Below, in pieces: positions 15,485 through 48,426 of a DNA stretch of 64,000 bases. The notes beneath the pieces were generated by a model, which saw nothing but the letters and a program-made list of their open reading frames with translations, made no database searches and was not told the origin of the DNA. The stretch lies in the NCBI GenBank assembly GCA_964614345.1, contig CAZTLP010000004.1, positions 2,491 through 66,490 of the forward strand, read 5' to 3'. Position 1 is the first letter of the stretch, and the number at the start of each line of letters is the position of its first letter. The DNA is from an uncultured Gammaproteobacteria bacterium. GTDB lineage: Bacteria; Pseudomonadota; Gammaproteobacteria; Magnimaribacterales; Magnimaribacteraceae. The position numbers were made by a program, and so were the translations under genes.

Positions 15485-16333
15485 ATGTCTTGGACCTATT
15501 TAAATAAGGAATTTTTAAGAAGAGAAGAAGTAAAAATTTCTCCTTTTGATCGCGGTTTTTTGTTTGGTGATGGTGTTTATGAAGTTATTCCAGTGTATGA
15601 AGGGATAGCCTTTCTTCTCGAAGACCATATAGCTAGATTAAGCCGTTCTTTAAATTCAACTGGCATTAAAAATCCGCAAAAATGGAATGATATTCCTCAA
15701 ATAATTCTTGAACTAGTTAAAAAAAATAACTTTAGTAATCAATCAGTTTACCTTCAGATAACTAGAGGTGAGGATTCAATTAGAAACCATATTCCAGACC
15801 CCGAAGTCGAACCCACTTTGTTTATTACTTCCTCAGAGCTTAAAGTTAATCCTTTCAGATTAGACCCAGAAAGAAAAGGATTGTCAGTGAAGACTCTAGA
15901 AGATCCAAGATGGAACAGGTGTGACATCAAGGCAGTTACTTTACTTTCAAACATCATGGCCATGAAAGAAGCTAATCTAGAAGGGAATGATGGAGTAATA
16001 TTTTGTGCCGATGGAGAAATAACTGAAGGTGCTGCAAGTAACGTTTTTGCTGTATTTGATAATCAAGTAATTACCACTCCTGAATCAAATCAAATACTTT
16101 CTGGGATAACCAGAAAACATGTTATTTCTTTGCTAAATAACAAAGGAATTGAAGTACTGGAAAGGGCTTTAAAATTAGAGGAAATATATAAAGCTGAAGA
16201 GGTATGGTTAACGAGTTCCACACAAGAAATACAACCAATAACAAAGATTGATGGAAGAGATATAGATCTAAAGAATTCTTATGAAGATTGTTTATGGTAT
16301 GAACTTCTAACCTCTTACTTTAGTCTGGTTTAA
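15485..16333 (+). CDS. dat: D-amino-acid (D-alanine) aminotransferase, fold type IV
   Basis: 282 aa. FLFGDGVYEVI, RCDIKAVTLLSNIMAMKEA and TEGAASNVFAV match blocks of Bacillus Dat recalled from memory. PabC-like function cannot be excluded. Confidence 0.75.
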   Translation: MSWTYLNKEFLRREEVKISPFDRGFLFGDGVYEVIPVYEGIAFLLEDHIARLSRSLNSTGIKNPQKWNDIPQIILELVKKNNFSNQSVYLQITRGEDSIRNHIPDPEVEPTLFITSSELKVNPFRLDPERKGLSVKTLEDPRWNRCDIKAVTLLSNIMAMKEANLEGNDGVIFCADGEITEGAASNVFAVFDNQVITTPESNQILSGITRKHVISLLNNKGIEVLERALKLEEIYKAEEVWLTSSTQEIQPITKIDGRDIDLKNSYEDCLWYELLTSYFSLV

Positions 16334-29977: not shown

Positions 29978-32299
29978 ATGAAAAGCATATATACGTGGCG
30001 GCCTTTACCTAAATTCTTTCATATCTTTCTTTTATTATTTTCTTTCTCTTCAATTCTCTCTTCTGAGATTCTGATAGATGGAAAGTTATCTGAAAAGGAA
30101 TGGCAAAATGCTAGAGAAGTTAACAAATTCTATGAAGTATTCCCTTTTTCTTTGAATGATGTTTCAGGAAACACAAGGGTTCTTATAGCAGACGATGAGA
30201 AAGGAATATATTTTGGATTTATTAACACACAGTCGAACGAATCTATAAGAGCAAACCAGCATCAACGTGATCAAGGAGCAAGACCTCCTGTAGGGGATCA
30301 GGTTGGTGTAACTTTAGATTTTGATAACGACGGAAAGACTGCTTATAGGTTTTCAGTTAATGCAGGAAATTCAATTAATGATGGGACTGTTATAAATGAG
30401 AATGAGCAAAATCTAGACTGGGATGGTGATTGGGTATCTGCAACTAGCATTTCGGATAATGGTTGGTATGCAGAGATATTTGTCCCTTGGGCAATCACTT
30501 CTATGAAGTCTCAAAAAGGGGAGGAACGAACAATAGGGTTTTGTTTTTATAGAATGATGATTGCCGAATATAAGGTATCTGCTACATGCAAAGGGAGTCC
30601 TTATGTAAATAAATTTCTTTCAGTATTTGATGAAATGAATTTTAAAAAATACGATGTTTCCCAGTTGGACTTCTTTCCTTATTTAACGGTTTCAGACGAT
30701 GCTGCAACGAAAGAGAAAGATACCAAGGTGGGAGCTGAAGTTTTCTGGAAAATTGACTCTAGTAAACAATTAAATGCCACCTTTAATCCAGATTTTGGTC
30801 AGGTTGAGAGTGATGAGCTGGTTGTTAATTTTTCTGCTACCGAAACCTATTACTCAGATAAGCGACCCTTTTTTGCAGAAAATCAATCTATGTTTGAGGT
30901 TCAAGGTTATCAAATGTTTTACGTGATCAACACCAGACGCATAGGCGCAGCCCCGGATTATAACTGCTCCAGTTTGTCTTCCAACCTGATACCCCTGTGC
31001 AATGCAAACAAAAAGGGCACTACAGACATAGATTTGGCGGTTCGATATATCCAACAAACTGAGAATCTGGATTTTGGATTCTTAGGAGCTTCTGAAAAAG
31101 ATGAGGAGTTTAGTCAAGGAAGAGATTTTTATGCTACTAAATTAAGAAAAACCAATAAAAACTTTTCAGTTGGATATTTGGGTACTTATGTTGAAAGGCC
31201 AGTTCTAAATCGAGAAGCCACTGTACACACTGCTGATTTCGAATACTGGGCTTCTGAAGATCTCAGGGTAAGTGGAGTTCTAATGAATTCAAAAGTTGAT
31301 GATCAAGATGGGTATGGGTTTAGAGTTGGATACGGCTATACGCCTTCAAAAACGTTTTCTGGAGGTATGGGAATTTGGTATTTCGATAAAAAAATAGATT
31401 TGAGTGACATGGGGTATTTATTTAGAAATGATCAAGCCTTCTTTTCGGGAAGGTTTGAATGGAAACAGCCAGAGTTCCCTGAAGCTTCTTTAACTAGAGA
31501 GAGAAGATACCAATTAGATTTTACTTATGAAACTGACAGTAAGGGTAATAAAGAGACTCCTCCAATTTCACTAACACTGACAAATGGATTTAAAAGCTCA
31601 TCTCAGGCGACGTTAAAAACTTTCTACAGGTTGAGTGGAAGGGACACCCTGATTACAAGAAAATATGAGCAAGCTCCTTTTGTAAATATGCCCACAGGGT
31701 ATGGTTTTGAATTTGAATACATGGGTCCATCGCGAGAATTCTTCCAGTACATGTTTCATTACAATCGAAAAAAAGGAGAGGAATACATGCCGGCTTTAGG
31801 CTGGAATACTGTTTATGATTTCTTCTTAGAGGTATCTCCTTCTGAATCTTTATCTTTGTCAGTGTTTTACCAAGAACACGAAGAAGATGACTGGTTAAAT
31901 TGGATTCAAGAAAATCTGTTAGCCACTTACGACATGAAACAGAGAGTAACAGTAGCAGGGCTTAACTGGTTTAAAGGCGAAAAGCATGAGTTAAGAGTTA
32001 AGGCACAAATGGTAGCTTTTACTGCAAGAAATCCAATGCCCTTTTTAGCAGATCAGTTTGGGAATCTAAATACTTCTCCAAAAAAGATTGCAGTACCTCC
32101 TATCACATTAAGTGATTTGGCTTTCCAAGTTAGATACAGATATGAATTGATGCCACTTTCCTATCTCTATGTTGTTTACACCAAAGGCGGAAGGGTAGTA
32201 GGAATGGATGAAGAAGACAGTTTAAGAAAAATCTATAAACGTCCTTGGGAAGATCCTCAGGCTGATACTTTTACCGTAAAATTAAGGTATAGATTCTAA
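29978..32299 (+). CDS. Secreted ~770-aa protein, paralogue 1: CBM9/DOMON-like N-terminal region plus a large predicted outer-membrane beta-barrel (DUF5916-like architecture)
   Basis: 773 aa with a signal peptide. N-terminal IDGKLSEKEWQNA...KFYEVFPF. Central blocks NPDFGQVESDELVVNF and YSDKRPFFAENQ. The C-terminus TVKLRYRF ends in an aromatic residue, as in OMP beta-signals. The family name is recalled from memory, not searched. Confidence 0.65.
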   Translation: MKSIYTWRPLPKFFHIFLLLFSFSSILSSEILIDGKLSEKEWQNAREVNKFYEVFPFSLNDVSGNTRVLIADDEKGIYFGFINTQSNESIRANQHQRDQGARPPVGDQVGVTLDFDNDGKTAYRFSVNAGNSINDGTVINENEQNLDWDGDWVSATSISDNGWYAEIFVPWAITSMKSQKGEERTIGFCFYRMMIAEYKVSATCKGSPYVNKFLSVFDEMNFKKYDVSQLDFFPYLTVSDDAATKEKDTKVGAEVFWKIDSSKQLNATFNPDFGQVESDELVVNFSATETYYSDKRPFFAENQSMFEVQGYQMFYVINTRRIGAAPDYNCSSLSSNLIPLCNANKKGTTDIDLAVRYIQQTENLDFGFLGASEKDEEFSQGRDFYATKLRKTNKNFSVGYLGTYVERPVLNREATVHTADFEYWASEDLRVSGVLMNSKVDDQDGYGFRVGYGYTPSKTFSGGMGIWYFDKKIDLSDMGYLFRNDQAFFSGRFEWKQPEFPEASLTRERRYQLDFTYETDSKGNKETPPISLTLTNGFKSSSQATLKTFYRLSGRDTLITRKYEQAPFVNMPTGYGFEFEYMGPSREFFQYMFHYNRKKGEEYMPALGWNTVYDFFLEVSPSESLSLSVFYQEHEEDDWLNWIQENLLATYDMKQRVTVAGLNWFKGEKHELRVKAQMVAFTARNPMPFLADQFGNLNTSPKKIAVPPITLSDLAFQVRYRYELMPLSYLYVVYTKGGRVVGMDEEDSLRKIYKRPWEDPQADTFTVKLRYRF

Positions 32300-32395
32300 A
32301 CTAACCTTTTTTTATATGAGTTTCTAGGCCTATGGATTGCTTGTGTTTCTTTTCCTTAGCCTTAGAATAGCCCCTCATTTTTAGGAGTAAATACC

Positions 32396-34717
32396 TTGCA
32401 TAGGAAGCTAAATCCTTTTTCCTGCTTTGTTTTAACATTCTTTTTATTTATCGCATTGCCAGTGTATTCAGTGGATATCAAGATTGATGGTGTTTTGGAT
32501 GAAGAGGATTGGTCTTCCGCCCGAGAGTGGACCAAATATTATGAATCAATGCCGTTTTCTTTAGCGGAGCCAAAACATTATCAGAAAGTTCTAGTTCAGC
32601 AAGATGAGAAAGGAATGTATTTTGGTTTTATTAATGAACAGCCAAGAGAATCAATACGTGCGAATAAGCATGAAAGAGATGATGAAATGGCAAATGCTGA
32701 TAAAGCAGGTTTAGCGATAGATTTTGATGGTGACGGTCTTACTGCTTATGGCTTCACTGTTTCGGCCGGAGGCTCTATAAGTGATGGCATCTATAGAAAT
32801 GAGAACGAAGCTAACTATGACTGGGATGCTGATTGGGATTCAGCCACTCATATTGAAGGAGATGCATGGTTTATTGAAATGTTTATTCCTTGGAGTATAG
32901 CTCCCATGAAGGCTCAAAAAGGAGAAGTTAGAACCGTTAAATTATCTTTTTGGAGAATGGTAGCAGCTGAATGGCGAGTCAATACCTCAATAAAAGGCAA
33001 TCCAAGACAAGAGAAATTTATGTCTCTTTTCCATGAATACGACTTTAAAAACTACAGCGTTTCGAAAATAGATTTCTTCCCGTACATAAATATTACTGAA
33101 GACAGAATCAAAGAAGATCAAGAGAATAAGGTAGGAGCAGAGATATTTTGGAAGATTGATTCGGGTAAACAACTAAACATAGCTTTAAATCCTGATTTTG
33201 GACAAGTTGAAAGCGATGAGCTTGTAGTTAACTTTACTCAGAGTGAAACCTTTTATTCAGATAAAAGACCTTTCTTTTCTGAAAATCACTCTTTGTTTGA
33301 TGTGAAAGGCTATAGATTCTTTTACGTCATAAACACAAGGAGAATCGGTTCTGCTCCAGATTACAATTGCTCTGAATACACTGATTCCTTAAAAAATATG
33401 TGCGAGGCAAGTCAAGAAGGTATTACTGACATTGACTATGCCATACGGTATACACAGCAAGGCGAGTCCATTGACTTTGGTTTTCTAAGTGCTTCTGAAG
33501 CCGACGAACAATTCAGTCAAGGAAATGATTTTTATGCAATAAGAACTAGAAAAAACACTGAGAATTACTCCTTGGGTTATCTAGGGACATACACACAAAG
33601 ACCGGTTCTGGATAGAGAAGCTAAAGTGCATTCAATCGATTTAACTTATAGGCCTACAGATAAAGTGAGAGTAGACACTGTCTTTATTACTTCAGATGTT
33701 GAACAAGGACTGGGTGAAATCAAGAAATCAGGAGAAGCATTTAGATTTAGACTAACGGCTTCGCCTAGAAAAGGGAGATGGCATGATATGGGAGTCTTCT
33801 TGTTTGGGAAAGAATTGGATATAACGGATATGGGTTATCAAATATCAAATAACTGGCTTTTCCTGGGTAGTCAGAATGGTTTAAAGTTTTCAGACTACGA
33901 CGAGTCATCTATTTTTCTTTCCAATGAAATTGAAGTGGGCTATTCGTTTGAGGGCAATGCAGACTTAGATAAATCAAGTCAATCCATCTATTTGTCTTAT
34001 GAAAGTAGTTTTAGAAATACTTCTAACATTGAGTTCACAAATTTTTATAGAACTCCTAGCAAAGACTTCTGGATAACTCGGGGTAACTTGATTTCCCCTT
34101 ACATCAAAATGCCTAAGAATTATGGAACTAAGTTGCAATTCATGGGCCCTTCTACAGATTTCTTTAAATATATCTTGGAGGTTAAAAGGGAAAAAGGATC
34201 GCAATGGATGTCTAGTGCATTAGGTTTTAAAACTTCTTATATGGCTATGGCAGAGTTTACCCCCAGAGATAATCTTAGTCTGAGTTTGATGTACCAACAT
34301 AGCAATGAAGACAATTGGTTAAATTGGATTGAAGGTAATTTGTTGGGGATTTATAAATCTAAACAAAGAGTTACGGTTGGGTCAATGAATTGGTTTGGTG
34401 GAGATAAACATGAGTTAAGAATGAAAGCTCAAATGGTAGCTTTCACAGCTAGGCAACCAAGTGCTTATCTTGGCAATGCAACAGGATCTCTGAATCCTAT
34501 TGAAATGGTACTTCCGCCTTTTAGTTTGAGTGATTTAGCTTTCCAAGTTAGGTATCGTTATGAAATTCTGCCTTTAGCTTATCTCTATGTGGTTTATTCC
34601 AAAGGAGGAAGAATAGTTGAACTTGATGAAGAGGACAGTCTAGATAAATTGTATAAACGTCCTTGGAATGATCCTCAGGCAGATAACTTCACAGTAAAAG
34701 TTAGATACAGATTCTAA
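32396..34717 (+). CDS. Secreted ~770-aa protein, paralogue 2 (same architecture as 29978-32299)
   Basis: 773 aa. TTG start preceded by AGGAG. Signal peptide ending in VYS. It shares the NPDFGQVESDELVVNF, YSDKRPFFSEN, INTRRIG, PDYNCS...C and LAFQVRYRYE...TVKVRYRF blocks with its neighbours. Confidence 0.65.
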   Translation: MHRKLNPFSCFVLTFFLFIALPVYSVDIKIDGVLDEEDWSSAREWTKYYESMPFSLAEPKHYQKVLVQQDEKGMYFGFINEQPRESIRANKHERDDEMANADKAGLAIDFDGDGLTAYGFTVSAGGSISDGIYRNENEANYDWDADWDSATHIEGDAWFIEMFIPWSIAPMKAQKGEVRTVKLSFWRMVAAEWRVNTSIKGNPRQEKFMSLFHEYDFKNYSVSKIDFFPYINITEDRIKEDQENKVGAEIFWKIDSGKQLNIALNPDFGQVESDELVVNFTQSETFYSDKRPFFSENHSLFDVKGYRFFYVINTRRIGSAPDYNCSEYTDSLKNMCEASQEGITDIDYAIRYTQQGESIDFGFLSASEADEQFSQGNDFYAIRTRKNTENYSLGYLGTYTQRPVLDREAKVHSIDLTYRPTDKVRVDTVFITSDVEQGLGEIKKSGEAFRFRLTASPRKGRWHDMGVFLFGKELDITDMGYQISNNWLFLGSQNGLKFSDYDESSIFLSNEIEVGYSFEGNADLDKSSQSIYLSYESSFRNTSNIEFTNFYRTPSKDFWITRGNLISPYIKMPKNYGTKLQFMGPSTDFFKYILEVKREKGSQWMSSALGFKTSYMAMAEFTPRDNLSLSLMYQHSNEDNWLNWIEGNLLGIYKSKQRVTVGSMNWFGGDKHELRMKAQMVAFTARQPSAYLGNATGSLNPIEMVLPPFSLSDLAFQVRYRYEILPLAYLYVVYSKGGRIVELDEEDSLDKLYKRPWNDPQADNFTVKVRYRF

Positions 34718-34767
34718 GAGGATAATTTTACTGTAAAATTAAGCCATTGGTTCAAGCAGAGGAATGA

Positions 34768-37065
34768 ATGACATCAAGGAAGGTTATATTTAGAAATATT
34801 TCTTTAATCCCATTTCTTCTTTACAGCAGTTTTCTTTTTTCTACTATAAAAGTGGATGGAAAGTTAGATGAAGAAGAATGGAGATCTGCTCAAGAGATAA
34901 GTAAATTCTATCAAGTTGGACCTTTCACACTAGAAGAACCAGAACAGAAAACTGTAGTAAAAGTTTACGAAACTGAAGATGGTTTGTATGTAGGCTATAT
35001 TAATTACCAACCCACAGAGACTATGCGATCCCAACAGCATGAAAGAGATGCTGATAATGCCAATGCAGATAAAGTAGGACTGACTGTGGATTTTGACAGT
35101 GATGCCTTGATGGCTTACTCGTTTACTGTATCTTTAGGGGGTTCTTTATGGGACGCGGTTTATAGAAACGAGAATGAGCAAAAAAAGGATTGGGACGCAG
35201 ATTGGGTAGCAAAGACATCAATTGACGAGGATGTCTGGTTTGCAGAGTTCTTTATACCTTGGACTGTTGCCCCTATGAAGAAGCAAGAAGGAGACTTAAG
35301 AAAAATAAGAATCAGTTTTTGGCGAATGTCTTTGGAAATATCTAAAGCTTTTGCCACTATTAAATCTAATCCTACAAGGTCTAGATTTATTTCTACCTTA
35401 AATGATCTTTATGTAAAAAATTTTGATAGCTCAAGTTTAGATTTTTTTCCTTATGTAACTGCTTCAAATGAAAGAACTACAGATGATAATAATGTAAAAG
35501 CAGGAGCAGAGATTTTCTGGAAGATAGACTCTGGGAGCCAATTAAATATTGCAATAAATCCTGACTTTGGCCAAGTAGAAAGCGATGATGTAGTAATTAA
35601 TTTCTCTGCTATGGAGACCTTCTACTCTGATAAAAGACCTTTCTTTTCAGAAAATCAGTCTATGTTTGATGTTGATGGGTACCGTTTTCTTTATGTAATC
35701 AATACACGAAGAATAGGCGGCTCTCCCAATTACAACTGTTCAGATTATAGTTCTGAATTAGAAGCTCTTTGTAGTGCAAACCAAAAAGGAAATTCAGATA
35801 TAAATCTCGCTTTCAGGTATACAAAAGTTGGTCAGAACTATGATTTAGGTTTCCTGGGCGCACTCGAATCTGATGAACCCTTCAGTGAAGGAAGAGATTA
35901 TTTTGCTACTAGGTACCGAGTAAAAAAAGAAAACTTGTCTTTTGGGTACTTAGGTACTTTCACTAAGAATGAAGTATTAAGCAGGAATGCTAATGTCAAT
36001 ACTGTTGACATGGTTTACCGTCCTAATGAAGATTTTAGACTTTATGCTCTCTTCTTAAACTCTATTGTTGAAGAAGATAAAGGATATGGATTCCGTATGA
36101 GTTTAAGCAAACAAATTAACCAGAATTTATCTACTGGAGTAGGTTTTTATTATTTAGATAAAGACTTAGATATGAATGATATGGGATATTTAGTAAGAAA
36201 TGACTGGATTATGTTAGGTGGAAGAACAGAGCTGCAAAAAACAGATTTTAATGATGCTTCAAAAACACTAATAAGAACTTATCAGCATTCATACGGTTGT
36301 AGAGCACTATCTAATGGAGATAAAGAAGGCTGTTTTTCAGGATTTGAAATTAAAAACCAATTTAAGAATACCGCGCAGGTTGAAGCAGAAGTATTTTTTA
36401 GAACAAATGGTAGAGATAACTTAATTACTAGGGGTTCTGAGTTAGCTCCTTACGTTAAATTACCTCAAAATTATGGGATCGACTTTAAGTATGTTGGGCA
36501 AAAAAGAAAATTTTGGCAGTGGGATTTATTTATACAAAGATCTAAGGGCAGTGAATATTCAAGTGATCTTGGGTGGAGAAACAAATATTATTCTTCAATT
36601 AAAGCGTTTCCATTACCGAATTTAACTTTGAGACTTTCTTATTCTCATGAAAAGGAAATAAATTGGCTTAATTGGATTCAAGATAACCTTTTGGGCACCT
36701 ATGAAAAAACTCAGAGAAACACTAATTTCTCAATTAAGTATTTCAAAGGTAATCAACATGAATTGAGGGTCAAGGCTCAGTTAGTTGCTTTTAATGCTAA
36801 AAATCCTCAAGCCCAAATTGCCTCTGTTAATGGGGAATTGAATGAATCTTCACTTAATTTAGATCCTTTTAGTTTAGGACAATTAGCTTTTCAAATTCGT
36901 TATCGTTATGAATTTATGCCTTTGGCTTATTTGTATGCTGTCTATACTAGGGGCGGTAGGATTTATGAAGCTGATGAAGAGGATGACTTAGGGACCTTGT
37001 ATAAAAGGCCTTGGGAAGATCCCTCAAAAGATAATTTTACTGTCAAAGTGAGATATAGATTCTAA
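34768..37065 (+). CDS. Secreted ~770-aa protein, paralogue 3 (same architecture as 29978-32299)
   Basis: 765 aa with a signal peptide. It has the same conserved N-terminal, central and C-terminal blocks, ending in TVKVRYRF. Confidence 0.65.
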   Translation: MTSRKVIFRNISLIPFLLYSSFLFSTIKVDGKLDEEEWRSAQEISKFYQVGPFTLEEPEQKTVVKVYETEDGLYVGYINYQPTETMRSQQHERDADNANADKVGLTVDFDSDALMAYSFTVSLGGSLWDAVYRNENEQKKDWDADWVAKTSIDEDVWFAEFFIPWTVAPMKKQEGDLRKIRISFWRMSLEISKAFATIKSNPTRSRFISTLNDLYVKNFDSSSLDFFPYVTASNERTTDDNNVKAGAEIFWKIDSGSQLNIAINPDFGQVESDDVVINFSAMETFYSDKRPFFSENQSMFDVDGYRFLYVINTRRIGGSPNYNCSDYSSELEALCSANQKGNSDINLAFRYTKVGQNYDLGFLGALESDEPFSEGRDYFATRYRVKKENLSFGYLGTFTKNEVLSRNANVNTVDMVYRPNEDFRLYALFLNSIVEEDKGYGFRMSLSKQINQNLSTGVGFYYLDKDLDMNDMGYLVRNDWIMLGGRTELQKTDFNDASKTLIRTYQHSYGCRALSNGDKEGCFSGFEIKNQFKNTAQVEAEVFFRTNGRDNLITRGSELAPYVKLPQNYGIDFKYVGQKRKFWQWDLFIQRSKGSEYSSDLGWRNKYYSSIKAFPLPNLTLRLSYSHEKEINWLNWIQDNLLGTYEKTQRNTNFSIKYFKGNQHELRVKAQLVAFNAKNPQAQIASVNGELNESSLNLDPFSLGQLAFQIRYRYEFMPLAYLYAVYTRGGRIYEADEEDDLGTLYKRPWEDPSKDNFTVKVRYRF

Positions 37066-45848: not shown

Positions 45849-45925
45849 GGGTCTGTAGCTCAGTTGGTCAGAGCGCACCCCTGATAAGGGTGAGGTCGGA
45901 AGTTCAAGTCTTCCCAGACCCACCA
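45849..45925 (+). tRNA. tRNA-Ile (anticodon GAU), with encoded CCA
   Basis: A manual cloverleaf fits. Acceptor GGGTCTG/CAGACCC; D stem GCTC/GAGC; anticodon stem CACCC/GGGTG with loop CTGATAA; T stem GGAAG/CTTCC with loop TTCAAGT; discriminator A plus CCA. Confidence 0.95.
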
Positions 45926-45953
45926 GTTTCCTCAAGTTAGATAAGGGTTTCAG

Positions 45954-45981
45954 AGAGTTTCATGGTTGAAACTCTTTTTTT
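45954..45981 (+). terminator. Rho-independent terminator downstream of tRNA-Ile
   Basis: AGAGTTTCA (45954-45962), loop TGGT, TGAAACTCT (45967-45975), followed by a run of T residues. Confidence 0.6.
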
Positions 45982-45987
45982 ATTTCT

Positions 45988-46005
45988 ATTCACACTTATT
46001 CACAC
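45988..46005 (+). repeat. Direct repeat ATTCACAC x2 (10-bp register), left arm of the mini-island
   Basis: ATTCACAC at 45988-45995 and at 45998-46005. The same octamer occurs twice again at 47430-47453. Confidence 0.7.
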
Positions 46006-46032
46006 AGTAAATAATATGTTCGGATGAACATT

Positions 46033-46052
46033 TTTTGTTCTGTAGAACAAAA
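46033..46052. repeat. Inverted repeat TTTTGTTCT-gt-AGAACAAAA
   Basis: Perfect 9-bp arms with a 2-nt spacer. It shares the core TGTTCTG.AGAACA with the palindrome at 47342-47365. GATGAAC copies flank it at 46023 and 46061. Confidence 0.7.
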
Positions 46053-46072
46053 TTCATTAAGATGAACCTTGT

Positions 46073-46118
46073 ACCTACTTAGCTCAGTTTTGGTAGAGCA
46101 GAAGACTCTTAAGCTCAA
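46073..46118 (+). other. tRNA-like 5' fragment (D-arm-like sequence), probably a degenerate remnant
   Basis: AGCTCAGTTTTGGTAGAGCA at 46081-46100 is a near-canonical D-arm. The following sequence (GAAGACTCTTAAGCTC) does not fold into an anticodon arm, and there is no T-arm. Confidence 0.25.
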
Positions 46119-46152
46119 AAATGCATTCATTAAAGTTTGGTATAGTTAGAAA

Positions 46153-46239
46153 ATGAAAAAAACTTCCTTAACCCTATCCCTCCTGCTAATCCTGTTTGCT
46201 GGTTGTTCATTCAGAAATAATTCCTGCTATATTAATTAA
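46153..46239 (+). CDS. Possible 28-aa mini-lipoprotein ORF
   Basis: MKKTSLTLSLLLILFAGCSFRNNSCYIN has a textbook lipoprotein signal with lipobox LFAGC and an 11-residue mature peptide containing two Cys. The ribosome-binding site is weak. It could be the stub of a truncated gene. Confidence 0.2.
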   Translation: MKKTSLTLSLLLILFAGCSFRNNSCYIN

Positions 46240-46303
46240 TTTTTAGATTTATCTCTTAAAAATAAGTTCCCAATACTATAATTAGAGAATCAGGAACAGG
46301 ATC

Positions 46304-47284
46304 GTGTCAGTAATTGAAGCAGAGAGAATCATTGCCAACCATGAGCGTATGCCTCATTCACCAGAGTATGAGAATGGTTCGGCATACACGCAAGACACGT
46401 ATCGTCCGATTGAGCAAGGTGTAGTGCCAATCACAGATGCTGGGTTTATCCACGCAGATGCAGCTTATGATGTGGTCAGCGCTAGCGCTGGATATATGTT
46501 CCGTTTGCAGGATCACATCAAGCGATTTACAGAATCTTGTGCAAAGTTTAGGTTAGAAAACCCTTACAGTGAGGCTCAAACAGAAGAGATTCTGAACAAT
46601 CTCGTTCGATTGGCCGGATTGAAGGATGCATACATCTGGTGGGCTGTAACGAGGGGTGAACTCGAAGAGGGCGACCGTGTCTCAGCCCAATATAAAAATA
46701 AGTTCTATGCGTTCGTGACGCCCTATATGTTTATTCATGGGGATAAACTCCGAACCCGTGGCGCCAAAGTTAAGATCAGTACCGAATTTAAGAGAATACC
46801 AAAAGAATCAGTAGACCCTACAGCCAAGAACTTCCATTGGATGGATATGAAACTGTCCTTGTTTGAGGCAATTATGTCTGGTGCCGAGTGGTCAGTGCTC
46901 ACCGATTTTGACGGTAATCTCACTGAAGCGCCCGGCTGCAACATATTTCTAATCAAGGATGGTGTGCTCAAGACACCGGATGATGGTTGTCTTGAAGGTA
47001 TCACGCGCCAAACGGTTTTCGATCTTGCCGAAGAACTTGAGGTAAAGCTAGAAGTGACAAAGATTCCGGTGCAGGAACTAGTCGATGCCGATGAAGCATT
47101 CTTAACCTCGACTGCGGGTGGCATTATGCCTGTTACGTCAGTTAACGAACGGCTATTAGGCGGACTCAATGGACCCGGCGAGATAACAACCCAGCTACAC
47201 AACCTCTACTGGGAGAAGCGTTGGGCTGGATGGCTGGGTACGCCGATTGATTACAGATGCGGAGCAACAAAAGAAAAAACGTGA
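46304..47284 (+). CDS. Fold type IV (class IV) aminotransferase, resembling (R)-selective amine transaminases and BCAT/DAAT relatives
   Basis: 326 aa with a GTG start. Blocks recalled as shared with fungal R-selective transaminases: HIKRFTESCAKFRL, DPTAKNFHWMDM, LTEAPGCNIFLIKDGVLKTPD..CLEGITRQTV and TSTAGGIMPVTSV. G+C is markedly higher than in the surroundings. Confidence 0.85.
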   Translation: MSVIEAERIIANHERMPHSPEYENGSAYTQDTYRPIEQGVVPITDAGFIHADAAYDVVSASAGYMFRLQDHIKRFTESCAKFRLENPYSEAQTEEILNNLVRLAGLKDAYIWWAVTRGELEEGDRVSAQYKNKFYAFVTPYMFIHGDKLRTRGAKVKISTEFKRIPKESVDPTAKNFHWMDMKLSLFEAIMSGAEWSVLTDFDGNLTEAPGCNIFLIKDGVLKTPDDGCLEGITRQTVFDLAEELEVKLEVTKIPVQELVDADEAFLTSTAGGIMPVTSVNERLLGGLNGPGEITTQLHNLYWEKRWAGWLGTPIDYRCGATKEKT

Positions 47285-47341
47285 GGAGAAGATAAAAAAA
47301 ACAAGAAAATTCTAAAACCTAACCAAACCTCCCTGCTGCTG

Positions 47342-47365
47342 TTCGTTGTTCTGCAGAACAACGAA
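47342..47365. repeat. Perfect 24-bp palindrome TTCGTTGTTCTGCAGAACAACGAA
   Basis: Self-complementary over all 24 nt and located 58 nt after the aminotransferase stop. It has no trailing T-run, so it is not an obvious terminator. Confidence 0.8.
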
Positions 47366-47429
47366 TTGAGATAAACAATATTTTAGTGTTCACATTTCGC
47401 TGAGAAACGACACAATAAAGTACCAAAAT

Positions 47430-47453
47430 ATTCACACTAGTATTCACACTAGT
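47430..47453 (+). repeat. Tandem direct repeat ATTCACACTAGT x2, right arm of the mini-island
   Basis: Two perfect 12-nt units, ending about 47 nt before the 45-nt tRNA-derived repeat. Confidence 0.8.
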
Positions 47454-47500
47454 TGAATGTAACCCCTATAGGTATAAGGTTTTGATGTACGAACAAGACA

Positions 47501-47545
47501 CTGATAAGGGTGAGGTCGGAAGTTCAAGTCTTCCCAGACCCACCA
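47501..47545 (+). repeat. 45-nt direct copy of the tRNA-Ile 3' end (att scar)
   Basis: Identical to 45881-45925 (anticodon loop through CCA). No matching tRNA 5' half lies upstream of it. Confidence 0.9.
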
Positions 47546-47602
47546 ATTGTTTCATTTATATCTGTGTTATTCTTATTTTTAAATATTAATAAGGAGAAAT
47601 TA

Positions 47603-48337
47603 ATGAAATATTTACTAACTATAATCTTATCATTTGGATGTTTTGCGCTTGCCAATGCTTCTGAACTACCCCCATCAGTCAGTGCAGAATATTTTGGATG
47701 TAAATTGGATGATAATAAGGATTTAAATGATTTAAACACTTGGGTAAAGAAATGGAATAGATGGATGGACTCAAGTGATTTAGGCGAATATGAAGCTAGT
47801 CTTTTAACTCCTTTATATAGATCTCCAAATGACGAGCTCGATTTTATGTGGGTTGGAAGGACTAATAGCTGGAAGGAACTAGCTAGAGGGCAATCAGCTT
47901 ATAGGTCTTCAGGTTTAGCAGATACTTTCCCAGCAAAATCTTGTCCGTTTAGCTTCATTGCTAGGCAGATACCTGTAAACGGAACTGACTTTAGAGATCA
48001 AATGAACCAGGATGAATTTGTTGCAGCATACTGGCTTTGTAACATAGAAAAAGGAAAATCAATTGAAGATGTTTATTCTTTACAAGAGAGAAGAATGAAA
48101 AATATATCTGAAAGTGGAAACGCGATTGCTTCAAGGATTGTTGTTCCAAGACAGGGAACTCCTGAAGCTATAAGAGATTACGATTTTGTAATGCTTTATG
48201 TTTCACCTAGCTTAGAACAGTGGGGAGCTAATGTAGATAACTACGTAACAAATATCCAAGGTTCTGAAGAAGATTCTATGGATGGAGTTTTTAATTGTGA
48301 CCATTCTACTGTCTATGTAGGACGAACTGTAAGATAA
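47603..48337 (+). CDS. Secreted protein of unknown function with an internal two-domain duplication
   Basis: The ATG at 47603 is preceded by AAGGAG (47591-47596). Signal peptide MKYLLTIILSFGCFALANA. Two ~105-aa halves share the pattern aromatic-x-C...W...LDF(M/V)...C. The longer start in the ORF track reads through the att repeat. Confidence 0.6.
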   Translation: MKYLLTIILSFGCFALANASELPPSVSAEYFGCKLDDNKDLNDLNTWVKKWNRWMDSSDLGEYEASLLTPLYRSPNDELDFMWVGRTNSWKELARGQSAYRSSGLADTFPAKSCPFSFIARQIPVNGTDFRDQMNQDEFVAAYWLCNIEKGKSIEDVYSLQERRMKNISESGNAIASRIVVPRQGTPEAIRDYDFVMLYVSPSLEQWGANVDNYVTNIQGSEEDSMDGVFNCDHSTVYVGRTVR

Positions 48338-48342
48338 AAAAA

Positions 48343-48366
48343 AGAGCCCGAAAGGGCTCTTTTTTG
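48343..48366 (+). terminator. Rho-independent terminator
   Basis: GAGCCC-GAAA-GGGCTC hairpin followed by TTTTTT, immediately after the stop at 48337. Confidence 0.8.
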
Positions 48367-48426
48367 GTTGAGGTTAGAAGATTAAATCTTCCTTGACCCA
48401 GAAACTTAATAGCGAGGTAAGATTTA

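Follow-up and report, generated by a model that had tools for sequence, protein, structure and literature searches.

How does a single gene come to lie behind a tRNA of a streamlined marine bacterium, in a unit that encodes no recombinase? Few uncultured heterotrophs of the surface ocean are as abundant as SAR86 bacteria, whose genomes are streamlined and in which, to our knowledge, mobile elements have seldom been recognised. We analysed a 64-kb stretch of SAR86 DNA from contig CAZTLP010000004.1 (the window; GC content 36.6%), in which an insert of 1,620 bp, cassette 1 (45926-47545), follows the gene for tRNA-Ile(GAT) and carries an aminotransferase gene between two non-coding arms. Contigs compared with the window are labelled with L-numbers (L001, L019, etc.). 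We propose that cassette 1 is probably a non-autonomous miniature integrative element resembling the cis-mobilisable elements (CIMEs), with no integrase of its own and moved in trans. An earlier note on this DNA had described a discrete, recombinase-less unit bounded by attachment-site (att) copies, with one large gene and with palindromes sharing a core at both ends. Each of these points held, and its motif coordinates all proved correct when the sequence was read directly.

Cassette 1 is an insertion bounded by copies of the tRNA-Ile end

Cassette 1 is delimited by a 45-nt block, CTGATAAGGGTGAGGTCGGAAGTTCAAGTCTTCCCAGACCCACCA, corresponding to the tRNA from its anticodon loop to its 3' end. 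Exactly two exact copies of this block are found in the window (0 expected from shuffled sequences), one in the tRNA itself (attL) and one closing the cassette (attR). A third copy, decayed to 67% identity, lies further downstream (48359-48406), showing that two cassettes stand in tandem at this site; the second, cassette 2, has none of the arm motifs of the first. The arrangement of cassette 1 is also present in independent assemblies (L001/GCA_030748295.1, L049 and L064), which excludes an assembly artefact, and the exact protein encoded by its aminotransferase gene is annotated at NCBI as belonging to a SAR86 cluster bacterium.

Several states of the site were observed among contigs with an identical upstream gene, pssA. 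L020 represents an empty site, with a 5'-nucleotidase gene immediately behind the tRNA and cassette 2 absent as well. L019 holds cassette 2 only: its tRNA runs straight into the sequence beyond 47545, and the junction is that of window position 47546. The left arm is absent from both. In L012, a related left arm comes after the tRNA and leads into different sequence. These states differ by segments whose ends are exactly the att copies, and cassette 1 is therefore an insertion polymorphism. Many short-read contigs (L012-L018, all with identical pssA) stop within or just after tRNA-Ile, and contig ends at this position are a signature of strain-level heterogeneity. A sister species (pssA variant P0144) has no element of the cassette family at its tRNA-Ile.

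In L003, the two att copies around the cassette differ: the downstream one has a compensated variant of the T arm (GGAGG/CCTCC), and the upstream one has GGAAG/CTTCC. This pattern is predicted by ordered site-specific integrations with a crossover located 5' of the T arm.

The same arms enclose unrelated cargo in other SAR86 species

If the bracketed layout were more than a local accident, it should recur around other genes, as the earlier note had suggested, and it does: it is found with different cargo next to tRNA-Ile in L031, L044 and L065. At least three species of SAR86 have these two arms, with unrelated genes between them. L031 contains two units in tandem. The first (L031a) consists of an att copy, a left arm (two copies of ATTCACAC, inverted repeat IR1 and half of inverted repeat IR2), a gene for a 195-aa secreted protein, a right arm (the palindrome CGGTGTTCTGCAGAACACCG, GTGTTCACA and ATGTACAC/ATGAACAC repeats) and a closing att copy; the second (L031b) starts with a left arm (two copies of ATGAACAC, IR1, IR2 and half of a pseudo-tRNA) and continues into other genes. 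L044, a gammaproteobacterial metagenome-assembled genome of another species, shares the ilvBNC-pssA-tRNA-Ile synteny of the window, and its arms, with ATACACAC repeats, surround a gene for a small secreted protein in reverse orientation in an almost complete unit. The 260-kb contig L065, from a third species, bears a complete single-gene unit of 1,016 bp whose cargo is the 195-aa gene. The palindrome is present in it, ATTCACAC pairs stand on either side of the gene, and ordinary host genes come next.

The degree of conservation of these arms does not match that of their hosts. Between the window and L065, DNA identity is 69.7% for pssA and 75.7% for ilvC, versus 97.5% for the left arm and 83.8% for the right arm. 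Compared to L044, the two host genes reach 69.6% and 74.5%, identity being 89.4% in the left arm and 77.6% in the right one, and the host spacer cannot be aligned. Non-coding arms are thus far better kept than coding host DNA, which means that the arms have recently spread horizontally.

Exact-pattern scans added further members. Among the matches listed, the left palindrome gave two true ones in JGI metagenomes, both of them cassettes, the other 18 of 20 being chance matches in unrelated genes; the right-arm pattern gave one true match in GTDB species genomes, again a cassette, and three chance matches out of four. At the protein level, cassette proteins are abundant in many samples, with one cluster of 42 members and one of several hundred; the 195-aa and aminotransferase proteins are located almost solely on short, repeat-bounded contigs of 1-3 kb.

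Conserved motifs of the arms

We aligned nine left and seven right arms, and every motif was found at a fixed position. The ATTCACAC repeat occurs six times in the 64 kb (1.94 expected), and four of the six are two tandem pairs (45988/45998 and 47430/47442), all on the + strand. The pairs on the two sides are hence in direct orientation and not mirrored, contrary to the first description. The consensus of the repeat family is TATNNACAC, where NN is TC, GA, GT or AC depending on the member. With copies one helical turn apart, one orientation on both arms and, in four of six cassettes, one variant on both, these tandem repeats are plausible arm-type sites for an integrase or a directionality factor.

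The palindromes lie further inside, at 108-127 bp from the left boundary and 136-159 bp from the right one. In the window, TGTTCTNNAGAACA occurs only at 46036 and 47347 (0.01 expected). Neither repeats nor palindromes are spread through the window, as they would be if they had no link with the borders of the island. In relatives, IR1 reads GTGTTC..GAACAC. The invariant 14-bp core common to both palindromes argues for sequence-specific recognition, and the GAACA-based palindromes (IR1, IR2 and the 24-bp palindrome) may be sites for an accessory protein or a regulator, i.e. operators, or else hairpins in RNA or DNA. A dimeric operator, the only reading considered initially, was overstated: a hairpin is the other live option, and the covariation data are too thin to choose. 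The 24-bp palindrome has a predicted RNA fold of -14.1 kcal/mol (z=-3.8) and shows one symmetric T-A to G-C change among relatives, with the mismatched intermediate present. It is not a canonical terminator, because no T-run follows it.

The first hairpin of the left arm, the nearest to the tRNA and one that the earlier note left undiscussed, is of a different nature. It has an RNA fold of -12.7 kcal/mol (z=-3.5), and together with its T-run it is a canonical intrinsic terminator, supplied by the element in replacement of that of the interrupted tRNA. Over six family members, 98.5% of the alignment cells in the stem are paired, and one pair is seen as A-U, G-U and G-C.

The left arm of the family also includes the 5' half of a decayed tRNA. 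Its full-length version in L012 (7006-7079) scores 27.1 bits with the Rfam tRNA model (gathering score 29), has broken anticodon and T stems, and is not called by ARAGORN. We considered whether this internal piece could be a functional tRNA and rejected it, as Rfam and ARAGORN give a decayed pseudo-tRNA only. It may derive from a tRNA formerly borne by the element or from a captured target.

Just upstream of the first cargo ATG, GTTTGGTATAGT is common to the window, L003, L006, L038, L031b and L066. It resembles an extended -10 box and could, speculatively, act as a promoter. A promoter scan also found TTCACA-17-TAATAT overlapping the left repeats. Promoter-like matches are not enriched (4 versus 6.2 expected), so reading the left repeats as a promoter is speculative too.

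The cargo is a recent arrival

The sole intact gene of cassette 1 belongs to the class IV aminotransferases, and among solved structures the fold-IV (R)-amine transaminases come closest (6snl, E=2.8e-67). We predict that it encodes an (R)-amine-transaminase-like enzyme. Its GC content is 47%, well above that of the window. A block of about 989 nt containing the gene differs by 8 mismatches (~99% identity) from a copy in L047, a genome of 45% GC in which the gene adjoins tRNA-Met(CAT)/rpoD, and homology stops sharply at both sides. Such identity with a copy in a 45%-GC lineage indicates that the cargo arrived recently. The host keeps a class IV aminotransferase of its own (282 aa, 15485-16333 in the window, next to a D-Ala-D-Ala carboxypeptidase gene), hence the cassette gene is an extra, divergent paralogue and not a replacement.

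Traces of what preceded this gene are still visible. Judging by its encoded N-terminus, a truncated signal-peptide open reading frame (ORF) between the left arm and the imported block is a relic of the 195-aa secreted-protein gene carried by the sister cassettes L031a and L065. The cassette of the window is thus a derivative in which the new cargo replaced most of the 195-aa gene between constant arms. Other combinations exist: L005 joins an upstream spacer of the L047 type to a right arm of the window type, and L002 has a methyltransferase gene upstream, both being larger versions with extra upstream genes.

Both cargo genes are also found in other contexts. In the 45%-GC genome, the island at tRNA-Met(CAT)/rpoD contains the same aminotransferase along with amt, glnK and small genes, separated by an imperfect palindrome of about 55 nt, (G/T)ACTAACTACACAACTCTCGGTGGGCGTGTGACATGCACCCAGTGTAA(GGTTA) (L047 1938-1990 and 3044-3098). 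This palindrome is also present in L048, L062, L063 and L005, and its TAAC...GTTA appearance recalls attC sites. In L062 (628-2285), which has this other type of island, the genes that accompany the aminotransferase encode an ammonium transporter and a P-II protein. This company hints that the aminotransferase cargo may be part of a nitrogen-acquisition gene set. The 195-aa gene, for its part, is found outside tRNA-Ile in L066 (8400-9682) and L067 (860-2360), in arrays where genes are joined at TCGTTGATGCCTGAGTAAA repeats and at duplicated stubs coding for signal peptides. These arrays suggest either a further context of cassette shuffling or recombination within conserved signal-peptide sequence.

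A non-autonomous element or a relic

We propose that site-specific recombination of the tyrosine-integrase type would have inserted the unit, or a longer precursor of it, in the tRNA-Ile(GAT) gene of a SAR86 host, with a crossover at or near the anticodon loop. The anticodon loop, where the identity block begins, is the classical crossover position for tRNA-targeting tyrosine integrases. A crossover at this point would imply that the element carries the replacement 3' 45 nt of the tRNA plus a new terminator hairpin. The left arm (~220 bp) would be the P' arm and the right arm (~180 bp) the P arm of the phage-type attachment site (attP) of the family. Repeated integration at the regenerated tRNA would then stack cassettes, with cassette 1 in front of the older, decayed cassette 2. 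Movement would need an integrase provided in trans by an autonomous relative, and cargo would be exchanged inside constant arms; here, a transaminase-like gene from a 45%-GC lineage would have taken the place of most of the secreted-protein gene.

Such an integrase was not found. No recombinase is encoded in cassette 1 (ORFs and Pfam) or among the integrase-sized ORFs of the window, no recombinase domain is present in any cargo protein of the window, L065, L031a or L044, and none was seen on the contigs examined that bear pssA, the 5'-nucleotidase, the cassette-2 protein, aminotransferase variants or the 195-aa cargo. The cognate integrase that the earlier note proposed to look for elsewhere was found neither among the matches listed for the searched collections nor on the related contigs.

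Several of our results weigh against this proposal. In IMG/VR, six exact patterns (left palindrome plus flank, right arm plus core, core plus repeat, repeat plus core, the IR1 region and the core alone) revealed no virus bearing the arms: five had no match and the core-plus-repeat pattern had one chance match. Both arms searched by BLAST against INPHARED phages, and the reconstructed attP against PLSDB plasmids, gave matches to the tRNA part only. In JGI metagenomes and GTDB genomes, searched with exact patterns, the true matches among those listed were all cassettes and none was an integrase-bearing relative. The sites themselves are not perfect either. The attR core of L065 has a 1-nt insertion; the repeat variant, identical on both arms in four of six cassettes, differs between them in L031a and L004; inner arm edges are ragged; IR2, present in most left arms, is halved in L031a and L065 and missing in L044; and L012 has lost its second repeat and IR1 by deletion. 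Ragged edges and lost motifs mean that not every motif is required for persistence. Last, covariation across six sequences yielded one compensated pair for the terminator hairpin, indistinguishable from shuffles, and one for the 24-bp palindrome, not above shuffles.

A failure to find the recombinase keeps two other explanations alive. According to the first, which we deem unlikely, the cassette is an inert decay remnant of a once-complete island: its arm motifs would be hitch-hiking relics, site-specific movement would no longer occur, and variation and spread would result from RecA recombination at the 45-nt repeats (loop-out and Campbell-type re-entry) or at flanking homology. The missing integrase fits this explanation, as do the ragged edges and lost motifs, the imperfect att copy of L065, the recombinant arm variants of L004 and L031a, and the relics inside the cassette (the pseudo-tRNA half and the truncated ORF). 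On the other hand, left arms that are 89-97% identical across hosts whose genes share ~70-76%, and that occur with four or more unrelated cargoes in units both small and complete, are hard to reach by 45 nt of homology alone. An identity block that begins exactly at the anticodon loop and cassette proteins that are abundant in many samples also speak against a relic, and the T-arm variant of L003 is a better fit to ordered site-specific events than to homologous recombination, which homogenises.

According to the second, tRNA-Ile would be the docking site of a cassette platform with integron-like logic, in which single-gene units are the normal mobile form and not products of decay, each with standard ends of ~200 bp that hold a terminator, repeats, operator-like palindromes and perhaps a promoter. 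The recombinase capturing and shuffling them would be chromosomal or supplied by a helper and never borne by a cassette; we hold this to be quite improbable. In its favour, every complete unit (in the window, L031a and L065, with L044 almost complete) is a single-gene, recombinase-less unit of 0.9-1.6 kb, units stack in tandem, the same cargo genes recur in cassette-like arrays whose junction repeats are different, and the left arm offers a possible promoter at its inner end, with a hairpin behind the cargo. However, the position of the junction between cargo and arm differs from one cassette to another, suggesting that these junctions arose by illegitimate recombination or by deletion and do not mark a set cassette boundary. 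Larger versions with additional upstream genes are seen in L002 and L005, the cassette of the window holds relics of earlier content, no recombinase is located near the site in three genomes, and our search was biased to short contigs. A bolder form of the same idea, that SAR86 possesses its own cassette system in which an unlinked recombinase captures, stacks and exchanges between species units whose standard arms of ~200 bp comprise a tRNA-restoring core, a terminator, paired TATNNACAC sites, GAACA palindromes and a possible promoter, is improbable as well, if a shade less so. It would be a functional parallel to integrons, yet with double-stranded, tRNA-based att sites, and if cassettes did prove to be the form in which genes normally move, they would define a new cassette-capture system.

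A tRNA-targeting transposon (a Tn7-like or CRISPR-associated remnant, or a miniature element derived from an insertion sequence) would agree with the position downstream of a tRNA gene and the short repeated motifs near both ends, and is scarcely credible, because the end repeats are direct and not inverted, the duplication is 45 nt of tRNA and not a short (~5-bp) target duplication, the insert lies inside a tRNA gene that it regenerates, and there are no terminal inverted repeats; repeat orientation and the nature of the duplication rule out attC readings too.

Relation to known systems

Cassette 1 had initially been assigned to no known family. Its structure is in fact that of a CIME, defined by the loss of the integration genes and the retention of attL and attR (PMC6323972), in the setting of a tandem, tRNA-proximal additive island. 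Its attL and attR are direct repeats, and no genes for integration, excision or transfer are found inside; an autonomous relative with the same att and arms was not among the matches listed for the collections searched by exact patterns. In Streptococcus thermophilus, CIMEs related to ICESt1 and ICESt3 lie in tandem at one attachment site and are moved by the integrase of their relative. Differences are also clear: CIMEs derive from known integrative and conjugative elements and usually measure from several kb to tens of kb, whereas the SAR86 units measure 0.9-1.6 kb, have one gene and no parent found. Their host belongs to the streamlined marine plankton, and nothing implicates conjugation. 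The cassettes form a new family within a known class of elements.

Islands next to tRNAs have been described in other bacteria. The tycheposon islands of Prochlorococcus and the additive islands close to tRNAs, such as the tRNA-Lys island of Methylophilaceae, have in common with this locus an integration at the 3' part of a tRNA, degenerate remnants, nutrient-related cargo and a heterogeneity that peaks next to the tRNA (10.1101/2020.12.28.424599; PMC10872708). Repeated tRNA ends are described for the additive islands (PMC10872708). The SAR86 locus is of the additive type, with three att copies separating its cassettes and variable content in L019, L020, L012 and L031. It shares partial tRNA copies and a flexible island with tycheposons. 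The hallmark integrase (a tyrosine or large serine recombinase), absent from the window as a whole too, and the replication module (primase/helicase) are absent from the cassette, which is therefore not a tycheposon. Furthermore, tycheposon remnants are described as having no clear boundaries (10.1101/2020.12.28.424599), in contrast to the sharp boundaries and long cross-species arms of the SAR86 cassettes.

The arms recall an attP of the lambda or L5 type: a core identical to that of the host, arms of 150-200 bp, direct repeats at helical-turn spacing and inverted repeats for accessory proteins. As in lambda-type arm sites, the TATNNACAC pairs keep their positions throughout the aligned arms on both sides. 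Mycobacteriophage L5 has adjacent pairs of arm-type sites on both arms. The likeness is one of layout only, since the cassette motifs match the sequences of no system identified.

Two other systems are worth comparing. At orfX/rlmH of staphylococci, pseudo-SCC and composite SCC (staphylococcal cassette chromosome) elements are recombinase-less, bounded by direct repeats, found in tandem and moved by the recombinases of other cassettes. They differ in their large serine recombinases (Ccr), in having a protein gene as target, in being much larger and in lacking any sequence relationship. Integron cassettes, similarly, mostly contain a single gene, carry no recombinase and stand in tandem at a fixed site. 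Where integron cassettes have attC hairpins, imperfect palindromes with R''/L''-L'/R' boxes, the SAR86 units end in 45-nt tRNA copies and double-stranded arms of ~200 bp. That the layout is not attC-like had been correctly noted from the start, and no intI, attI or cassette promoter (Pc) is found at the locus (window ORFs and precomputed Pfam). With neither attC nor intI, cassette 1 is not an integron cassette.

This locus describes, at base-pair resolution, one route for single adaptive genes into and out of streamlined genomes: a tRNA-Ile hotspot with small recombinase-less cassettes whose ends cross species boundaries, the gene in the present case being one for an amine or amino-acid transaminase. 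It extends the tRNA-island model from Prochlorococcus to a different phylum-level group, and its conserved arms are searchable markers for the missing integrase and for the turnover of cassettes in metagenomic time series.

Feature coordinates and neighbouring genes

Table 1. Features of the tRNA-Ile locus (window positions).
Feature	Position	Strand	Evidence or remark
Host tRNA-Ile(GAT)	45849-45925	+	ARAGORN; Rfam tRNA, 74.7 bits
attL core, last 45 nt of tRNA-Ile(GAT), anticodon loop to 3' end	45881-45925	+	Exact 45-mer repeat
Left arm, putative P' type, kept across the cassette family	45926-46146	+	Alignment of nine left arms
Terminator hairpin GAGAGTTTCA-TGGT-TGAAACTCT followed by T-run	45952-45984 (hairpin 45952-45977)	+	Terminator scan
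Left tandem direct repeats, TATTCACAC twice, 10-bp register	45987-46005	+	Same position in all members
IR1, ATGTTC-GGAT-GAACAT	46016-46031	+	Kept in 8 of 9 left arms
IR2, left palindrome TTTTGTTCT-GT-AGAACAAAA	46033-46052	+	Core TGTTCTGNAGAACA common with right palindrome
5' half of decayed tRNA (pseudo-tRNA), part of family left arm	46074-46113	+	
Kept GTTTGGTATAGT, inner end of left arm	46135-46146	+	
Truncated signal-peptide ORF (MKKTSLTLSLLLILFAGCS...)	46153-46239	+	Compared with N-terminus of L031a/L065 cargo
Imported block with aminotransferase gene	46275-47263	+	Comparison with L047
Aminotransferase coding sequence, sole intact gene	46304-47284	+	Pfam PF01063, E=1.6e-49
Right arm, putative P type, kept across the family	47318-47500	+	Alignment of right arms
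Perfect 24-bp palindrome TTCGTTGTTCTGCAGAACAACGAA	47342-47365	+	14-bp core as in IR2
GTGTTCACA, inverted copy of the repeat motif (TGTGAACAC on minus strand)	47386-47394	-	In all right arms
Right tandem direct repeats, TATTCACAC(TAGT) twice, 12-bp register	47429-47453	+	Orientation as left pair
Kept 8-bp palindrome CCTATAGG, ~30 bp from core	47465-47472		Sequence and right-arm alignment
attR core, exact 45-nt copy of tRNA-Ile 3' part, closing cassette 1	47501-47545	+	
Older cassette 2	47546-48406	+	244-aa secreted protein, terminator, decayed att copy (48359-48406)
Coding sequence of 244-aa secreted protein	47603-48337	+	In cassette 2; family not recognised
Bidirectional terminator in cassette 2	48338-48365		

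Elsewhere in the window, positions 29978-37065 hold three tandem ORFs on the + strand, of 773, 773 and 765 aa, the last of which matches a DUF5916 protein (Pfam annotation of L050).

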